Below, piece by piece: positions 46,207 through 46,341 of a stretch of DNA of 64,000 bases. Each line of letters begins with the position of its first letter. The first letter of the stretch is position 1. The position numbers and the translations under genes are program-made. The DNA comes from Escherichia coli (GTDB lineage Bacteria; Pseudomonadota; Gammaproteobacteria; Enterobacterales; Enterobacteriaceae): NCBI RefSeq assembly GCF_024502345.1, contig NZ_JALDNN010000001.1; one strand, written 5' to 3'. Below the pieces are notes generated by a model that saw only the letters and a program-made list of their open reading frames with translations, made no database searches and had not been told where the DNA came from.

Positions 46207-46341
46207 GTTCAATACTATTAGCCAGTGGCTAACATTGCAAGCGTTAGCGATTTCTTCAGCTGGAGAAGGGACAGTTTGCTATACATGTTGGTGAAAGAGG
46301 ATTTATATACTTTCATCGGGTCGCTGCCGTACCAGGCTTTG

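Follow-up and report, generated by a model that had tools for sequence, protein, structure and literature searches.

A decayed copy of part of gor, the gene for glutathione-disulfide reductase, lies between the two agr antitoxin genes of the dinQ/agrAB locus in this Escherichia coli genome. We regard it as a non-coding relic of a tandem duplication that took in the gor 3' end, dinQ, and agr, after which the second toxin gene would have been lost and the gor remnant would have drifted freely, and we put the probability of this reading at about 0.6.

The dinQ/agrAB locus and the gor relic

Weel-Sneve et al. 2013 (PMC3567139) described dinQ/agrAB in E. coli K-12 as a type I toxin-antitoxin locus and proposed that its agr genes are "tandemly duplicated," and a second paper on the locus, Kristiansen et al. 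2016 (PMC5066626), also deals with plasmid-borne dql (dinQ-like) loci. The stretch of DNA analyzed here, called the window, is 64,000 nt long, and its arsR-gor intergenic region is the same locus as that of K-12, with three direct repeats, two agr sRNA genes, and a LexA-controlled dinQ, but with a different spacer haplotype. A piece of gor between the agr genes is mentioned in neither paper, and the K-12 RefSeq record has nothing annotated at that position. Because K-12 annotates the arsR-proximal copy as agrB and the dinQ-proximal copy as agrA, we name the agr copies by position. The features of the window are as follows.

arsC-arsB-arsR, minus strand: neighbors of the locus on the side away from gor
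45617-45970: arsR
45971-46850 (880 bp): arsR-gor intergenic region, the dinQ/agrAB type I toxin-antitoxin locus
46107-46250: first copy of the agr direct repeat, comprising terminator flank, sRNA, and promoter up to the -35 box (repeat search, copy alignment)
46121-46204, minus strand: arsR-proximal agr sRNA gene, at the agrB position in K-12 (Rfam RF02891, 107.2 bits; K-12 annotation)
46254-46336, minus strand: gor relic (pseudo-gor), gor codons ~361-390, with an ungapped core at 46280-46332
46341-46485: second agr direct repeat copy, which meets the 5' end of the relic on its left side at the duplication junction (repeat search, copy alignment)
46355-46387: terminator hairpin of the dinQ-proximal agr (inverted repeat)
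46355-46439, minus strand: dinQ-proximal agr sRNA gene, at the agrA position in K-12 (Rfam RF02891, 91.9 bits)
46503-46522, plus strand: LexA box of the dinQ promoter, tactgtatgattatccagtt (read from the sequence; LexA control in PMC3567139)
46607-46639, plus strand: third, short repeat copy inside the dinQ 5' UTR, the target of agr pairing (repeat search; PMC3567139)
46714-46797, plus strand: dinQ coding sequence, 27-aa toxin (ORF list; annotated at the matching position in locus L001)
46851-48203, minus strand: intact gor, glutathione-disulfide reductase, 450 aa (ORF list; gorA in the annotation of the closest genomes)
47034-47121, minus strand: parent segment inside intact gor (gor nt ~1083-1170), core at 47066-47118
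rlmJ and prlC: next beyond gor in the gene order of the window

The agr direct repeats recur with a period of 234-235 nt among the repeat families of the window, and the relic is the spacer between the terminator of the dinQ-proximal agr and the promoter of the arsR-proximal agr. No more than ~5 nt separate its start from the left edge of the second repeat copy (46336/46341), and it is in direct orientation, as expected at the junction of a tandem duplication.

Homology of the relic to gor

BLASTN returned a single significant match to gor in the whole arsR-gor intergenic region, an ungapped alignment of 46280-46332 with 47066-47118 on the same strand as gor, identical at 44 of 53 nucleotides (83%; E 2e-11), and the same pair was recovered by the repeat search. 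In local alignment with gor, the window relic scored 35, whereas 1000 dinucleotide shuffles averaged 10.2 (sd 1.3) and never exceeded 17 (z = 19.5). The K-12 haplotype of the relic scored 30 against the same gor segment (z = 14.2, 1000 shuffles) and carries the homology on to gor nt 1162. When translated, the relic matched Gor residues 363-383 with 13 identities out of 21 (BLASTP, E 3e-8).

A degenerate copy of an internal gor segment had been proposed here by a first-pass annotation, and the nucleotide, protein, and shuffle results confirm it. Its minus-strand translation of 46259-46337 is correct, and its placement of the segment between two agr repeats is borne out by the Rfam AgrB genes on either side. 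The matching core that it described is real, but it is 53 bp at 83% identity rather than ~45 bp at ~80%, and the Gor peptide QYGDD...TAV, which it located at 47071-47130, is actually encoded at 47058-47120, about 10 nt away. Chance similarity or an assembly artifact has a negligible probability: no dinucleotide shuffle came near the observed score, and the segment is present in 3,841 of 5,426 complete E. coli genomes as well as in metagenome contigs and in Escherichia albertii.

Little of the parent gene is left. Whereas a functional gor copy would consist of a ~450-aa ORF with FAD/NAD-binding and dimerization domains, the relic retains ~30 codons, and the codon for Q361 is a stop in the relics of both K-12 and E. 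albertii. Nor is the relic part of an agr gene, since the flanking copies score 107 and 92 bits and the relic-containing stretch only 31, against an Rfam AgrB (RF02891) gathering score of 40 bits; that match is also on the opposite strand and reaches into the agr terminator. The first-pass annotation further suggested that the agr repeat region arose from the gor duplication. In that wording the suggestion is not supported, as the gor similarity found by BLASTN does not extend into the repeats. The agr repeats belong to the dinQ/agr cassette, which also adjoins gor without a relic in a Citrobacter youngae strain and has relatives, the dql loci, on plasmids.

Haplotypes and copy number of the relic in E. 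coli

Among the 5,426 complete E. coli genomes, the relic occurs as two haplotypes. The window type was found in ~810 genomes and is 100% identical in O157:H7, and the K-12 type was found in ~3,029. Another ~1,583 genomes (~29%) lack the spacer and match only gor itself. Both haplotypes share their two junctions: the agr terminator flank (...GATTCGGAC) is joined to about gor codon 361, and about gor codon 390 (...CAGCTGAAG) is joined to DNA immediately before the -35 box (TTGCAA) of the following agr. Of 79 gor positions compared, ~69% are matched by each haplotype on its own and 82-87% by one or both, and 8-12 derived changes are common to both. Because the junctions are common and different gor bases were kept, we interpret the haplotypes as a single gor-like insert that decayed independently. 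In the K-12 relic, the in-frame stop at the Q361 position is accompanied by a 4-nt deletion, after which unrelated residues are encoded. The K-12 and window gor alleles seemed to covary with relic haplotype at a TAC/TAT difference, but this proved to be coincidence, as Escherichia strain E69 breaks the association.

The relic also varies in copy number. In one genome lacking it (L002), exactly 235 bp are missing, and a chimeric agr combines an arsR-proximal-type terminator with a dinQ-proximal-type promoter, an arrangement that identifies it as the product of recombination between the two agr copies. Loss of the relic from the ~1,580 genomes apparently occurred by the same agr-agr recombination, which is demonstrated in this one genome. 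At the other extreme, 10 of the 5,426 genomes carry two relics. OkiPb01701, the one of these ten that was checked with Rfam, has three tandem AgrB genes with a 231-nt period and two relics (L118, 820-1365). Arrays of the 231-235-bp [agr + relic] unit thus range from one agr gene to three, which is the pattern that unequal crossing-over would produce. In all ten two-relic genomes, the copies belong to one haplotype, and the arrays found with a K-12-type probe were K-12-type; the two haplotypes, whose co-occurrence would point to sorted paralogous spacers, were not seen side by side in any of the 5,426 genomes. The laboratory strain Origami2-DE3, which has an engineered gor mutation, and TUM18781 are among the two-relic genomes.

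A different rearrangement was observed in two further genomes without the spacer, E. coli DEF2 and EC12 (L003, 1437-1908; L004, 1361-2443), where an agr copy recombined with the dinQ repeat. These variants have lost the promoters of both agr and dinQ together with the LexA box, and arsR and arsB are deleted; L004 also carries an inserted IS481. They still have the dinQ coding sequence, which is presumably silent.

The locus in related species, metagenomes, and plasmids

Relatives were surveyed with a Gor-based scan of one genome per species, which yielded at least 80 loci. Strain E69, whose gor is 95% identical to that of the window, has the full two-agr arrangement and a K-12-type relic, and this haplotype is almost unchanged between K-12 and E69, a divergent strain. 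In E. albertii, the order is gor, dinQ, and one agr (Rfam), followed by the relic directly after the agr terminator flank. There the relic consists of two colinear gor blocks, one at nt 1085-1103 (17/19) and one at nt 1324-1353 (26/30) that takes in the stop, perhaps with a further block between them, and its gapped score against gor (39.7) exceeds all 500 shuffles (maximum 33.2). Because the last 10 codons and the stop are retained, the original duplicate must have run from about codon 361 to the gor stop (~270 bp), which supports the first-pass suggestion that the gor 3' region was partially duplicated long ago. A comparison of the arsR-gor region across Enterobacteriaceae had also been suggested as a means of dating the duplication, and the E. 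albertii relic bears on its age: given vertical descent, the duplication would be older than the split between E. coli and E. albertii. E. albertii does not have the derived changes common to both E. coli haplotypes (GATCAGG to GACCC..), and both haplotypes appear to be younger than that split.

After its pseudo-stop, the E. albertii locus continues into DNA that is 95-96% identical to the tail-gene region of P1-like phage-plasmids, and the ars operon, which is variable in E. coli, is absent. A hairpin just after the pseudo-stop (CCCGTTATATCGGGTTTT) was considered as an ancestral gor terminator, which would have spoken for the insertion route discussed below, and was rejected, as a search of E. 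coli genomes placed it in the phage-plasmid tail-gene DNA that starts right behind the stop codon. In this region (L006, 5931-6240 and 6445-7157), the phage-plasmid-like sequence is followed by two adjacent ORFs of 100 and 112 aa that look by eye like a HigB/HigA-type toxin-antitoxin pair.

Farther afield, Citrobacter youngae CCUG 30791 has gor, dinQ, and one agr (82% identity) but lacks the relic, and in Kosakonia sacchari a dinQ-like locus follows gor at a distance of ~750 nt. The remaining 76 species listed have neither dinQ beside gor nor a gor fragment, with the exception of Phytobacter ursingii, which carries a gor copy. In this species (L027, 5354-6937), gor is intact, and beyond it come a 1.4-kb insert encoding a 324-aa fimbrial-type ORF and then a 199-nt copy of the gor 3' end (6737-6934). 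The copy is 99% identical, begins at codon ~384, and ends in a different stop codon; judged by eye and unscored, the flank beyond it resembles the gor-downstream sequence of P. diazotrophicus. P. ursingii represents an independent and recent case of gor 3' duplication.

The junction was also found in 31 metagenome contigs, all of which fall into one of the two E. coli haplotype classes or the E. albertii form, with no intermediate relic among them. More than 1,200 plasmids carry an agr-like sequence that matches ~65 nt of the agr gene (window 46118-46187, the terminator and 3' half) at 78-91% identity, and none of these plasmids has the relic or the arsR flank. Most are conjugative and come from Escherichia, Salmonella, Klebsiella, and Shigella. 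The matches are presumably the antisense RNAs of the dql loci of PMC5066626.

Origin of the relic

In our preferred reading, the common ancestor of E. coli and E. albertii would have gained, beyond the dinQ-agr cassette, a second copy of the final ~270 bp of gor in direct orientation. Tandem duplication of a ~0.8-kb [gor 3' end-dinQ-agr] unit would have produced the order gor-dinQ-agr-gor'(361-stop)-dinQ'-agr'. In the E. coli lineage, a deletion of ~0.55 kb would then have removed the rest of gor' together with dinQ' and its promoter, leaving the second agr and fusing gor'(361-390) just upstream of its -35 box. The relic would have drifted freely from that point and would serve today only as spacer and promoter-upstream DNA that moves with the 231-235-bp [agr + relic] unit during unequal recombination. 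The order gor-dinQ-agr-relic-agr is exactly what such a duplication followed by an internal deletion predicts, and a single tandem duplication with loss of the second dinQ would be the most economical account of the E. coli arrangement. The link between the cassette and gor is older than the relic, as seen in C. youngae and K. sacchari, so no new acquisition is needed to explain it.

Some of the evidence sits less easily with this route. The deletion step is no more than inferred, because neither a second dinQ nor gor codons 391-450 have left a trace in any E. coli haplotype or metagenome contig examined. A dinQ remnant beyond the relic was found nowhere, including E. albertii, where the last gor codons and the stop give way to phage-plasmid DNA. 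Since E. albertii has the relic with a single agr, the gor duplication and the agr-agr duplication are not demonstrably one event, and the second agr could have been added later than the relic. In addition, the cassette stops at the same right-hand junction (...GATTCRGAC) in each of three contexts, and such a discrete end would fit a mobile cassette better than the random breakpoints of a duplication.

The main competitor, which we consider about half as probable, is that the cassette arrived on DNA carrying a donor gor 3' end and that one crossover within gor displaced the resident gor end, whether a circular fragment integrated in the Campbell manner or homology-facilitated illegitimate recombination took place. 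The functional gor end would then be donor-derived, the resident segment from codon 361 to the stop would have been moved beyond the cassette, and the second agr and the ars operon would later have replaced the rest of the displaced end. E. albertii, with gor, dinQ, one agr, and a relic that reaches the gor stop, is the product this predicts; P. ursingii shows the same architecture independently and recently, the cassette ends are discrete in three contexts, and relatives of the cassette are common on conjugative plasmids. Against it, extra events are needed to place the second agr exactly inside the relic, and the cassette was probably already beside gor in the ancestor of Citrobacter and Escherichia. 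The E. coli gor 3' end also has no mosaic signal relative to the 5' part: when identities of the gor 5' 1080 nt and 3' 273 nt were compared across 66 of the species listed, no outlier was observed, including the dinQ-bearing Citrobacter, which gives no evidence for an imported gor 3' end. The relic does not point to a source species either, with 39-46 matches of 53-55 for both haplotypes against the gor genes of 80 listed species, among which Escherichia is indistinguishable (42-44 matches, versus 39-46 for other genera). The flank that would separate this route from tandem duplication was lost from E. albertii when phage-plasmid DNA took its place, and it has been overwritten in E. coli as well; together with the unresolvable source and the lack of a mosaic signal, this makes the two routes inseparable on the present data. 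That the relic is instead a piece of foreign gor imported with the ars operon or with the second agr copy is highly improbable. The ars operon is indeed missing at the E. albertii locus and variable in E. coli, and the relic is as similar to the gor of other genera as to that of Escherichia, but in E. albertii, where both ars and a second agr are missing, the relic occupies the same junction, and the agr-like copies on plasmids are accompanied by neither the relic nor the arsR flank.

Haplotype divergence and present function

Free drift as part of the tandem-duplication reading implies a relic without function, and the divergence of its haplotypes bears on this. The window-type and K-12-type relics differ at 30 of 79 columns. 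No other part of the locus diverges as much between the window and K-12, with 27 differences per 100 columns in the relic as against 0-3 per 50 in most neighboring bins and 2.4% in gor. This difference is far above that of the DNA around it, and simple neutral decay within a single species does not account for it. Locally raised mutation or conversion, the sorting of paralogous spacers from an older multicopy array, and introgression are all possible explanations. More broadly, the dinQ-agr array might be under long-term diversifying or balancing selection or a raised mutation or conversion rate, with the relic representing old allelic classes or sorted spacers. We think this improbable; it draws on the contrast between the 30/79 relic difference and flanks that differ by a few percent, and on coordinated switching of the 9-nt pairing core described below. 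In a speculative variant, relic RNA pairs with gor mRNA, and if that were true, a read-through or antisense relic RNA would couple glutathione reductase to an SOS-controlled toxin locus.

Slightly less probable still is that the relic is itself functional, whether as a 32-aa ORF (46218-46316, minus strand), as an upstream element of the arsR-proximal agr promoter, or as an RNA pairing with gor mRNA or its antisense. The ORF is open in both haplotypes because the indels sum to -3 nt; a 71-aa hypothetical protein called by PGAP spans the relic in some genomes; and the relic lies at about -49 to -132 from the agr transcription start mapped in K-12. The amino acids are not conserved between haplotypes, however (FTNMYSKLSLL versus LRYIPKCSLR), no Shine-Dalgarno sequence was visible on inspection, and the ORF lies downstream of a terminator. 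A simple consensus promoter scan of the relic returned nothing informative, with no promoter-like site on the antisense strand. We see no sign of constraint in a segment that is the most divergent part of the locus, has a stop and a 4-nt deletion in K-12, and is missing from ~29% of genomes, and judging from these sequence comparisons a present function is unlikely. The 71-aa ORF corresponds to window 46218-46433 on the minus strand and to WP_000968019.1 in strain CT282 (L119, 414-629), whose equivalent here runs through the dinQ-proximal agr, its terminator, and the relic. This call is probably spurious and owes part of its length to the residual reading frame of the relic.

Relation to known duplications and toxin-antitoxin arrays

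Duplicated 3' gene ends commonly border inserted DNA, as in the att-like repeats of genomic islands and the products of Campbell-type integration. Such borders consist of an intact gene, an insert, and a truncated direct copy of the gene's 3' end, and the same layout is seen in E. albertii and, freshly formed, in P. ursingii; the E. albertii duplicate reaches the gor stop with phage-plasmid DNA as the flank beyond, and the P. ursingii flanks were assessed by eye. Unlike island borders, the dinQ-agr cassette is only 0.5 kb and has no evident integrase or recombinase ORF, its ORFs other than dinQ and agr being short and in alternative frames. The duplicate is also long (~270 bp), and E. coli retains only codons ~361-390 of it, with a second agr in place of the rest. 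The P. ursingii copy resembles the relic in being a direct gor 3' duplicate beyond an insert with the upstream gor intact, but differs in that the event is recent (99% over 199 nt), starts at codon ~384, and surrounds a 1.4-kb insert with a fimbrial-type gene rather than dinQ-agr.

Tandemly repeated type I toxin-antitoxin loci are familiar in E. coli from ldr/rdl with its long direct repeats, ibs/sib, and zor/orz. As in these, a toxin-antitoxin cassette has been locally duplicated, its copy number varies between strains, and the copies have decayed unequally. The dinQ/agrAB locus differs from them in that the second toxin is gone and only the antitoxin is duplicated, and its scar includes a piece of a neighboring housekeeping gene. 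As a duplication scar or gene relic, it adds one more example to a familiar class of features and is otherwise an ordinary pseudogene fragment. Its value lies in being physical evidence for how dinQ/agrAB was assembled, as the tandem agr duplication had previously only been presumed. The duplicated unit evidently took in the end of the adjacent gor, and on the tandem-duplication route the second toxin copy would have been lost and the second antitoxin gene kept. The presence, haplotype, and copy number of the relic (0, 1, or 2) can also serve as a marker that classifies E. coli strains by agr gene number, which matters when results for K-12 agrA and agrB are carried over to other strains.

Strain variation in the pairing core and the ars operon

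Strains vary greatly in the 9-nt core through which dinQ and agr pair, and the three repeats switch this core in a coordinated manner. We compared the pairing regions of the window (46607-46639, 46408-46440, and 46173-46205) with those of loci L001, L005, L009, L006, and L016. In the window, the cores are AATGGCATT in dinQ, GATGGCATT in the dinQ-proximal agr, and GTGGGCATT in the arsR-proximal (distal) agr. K-12 has AAGAACTCT in both dinQ and the distal agr, and L001 has GTGGGCATT in both of these positions. E. albertii and E69 have GACGACTAT in dinQ and GATGACTAT in the proximal agr, and in C. youngae GATAACTAT is found in both dinQ and agr. The dinQ-proximal agr of the window is the better dinQ pairer, matching at 31 of 33 positions compared with 29 of 33 for the arsR-proximal copy. 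This preference is the opposite of that in K-12, and the effective antitoxin may therefore differ between strains.

The arsR gene of the window differs from that of K-12 by ~10%, with 4-7 differences per 50 nt, well above the 2.4% seen in gor, which suggests that the ars operon has had a different history.
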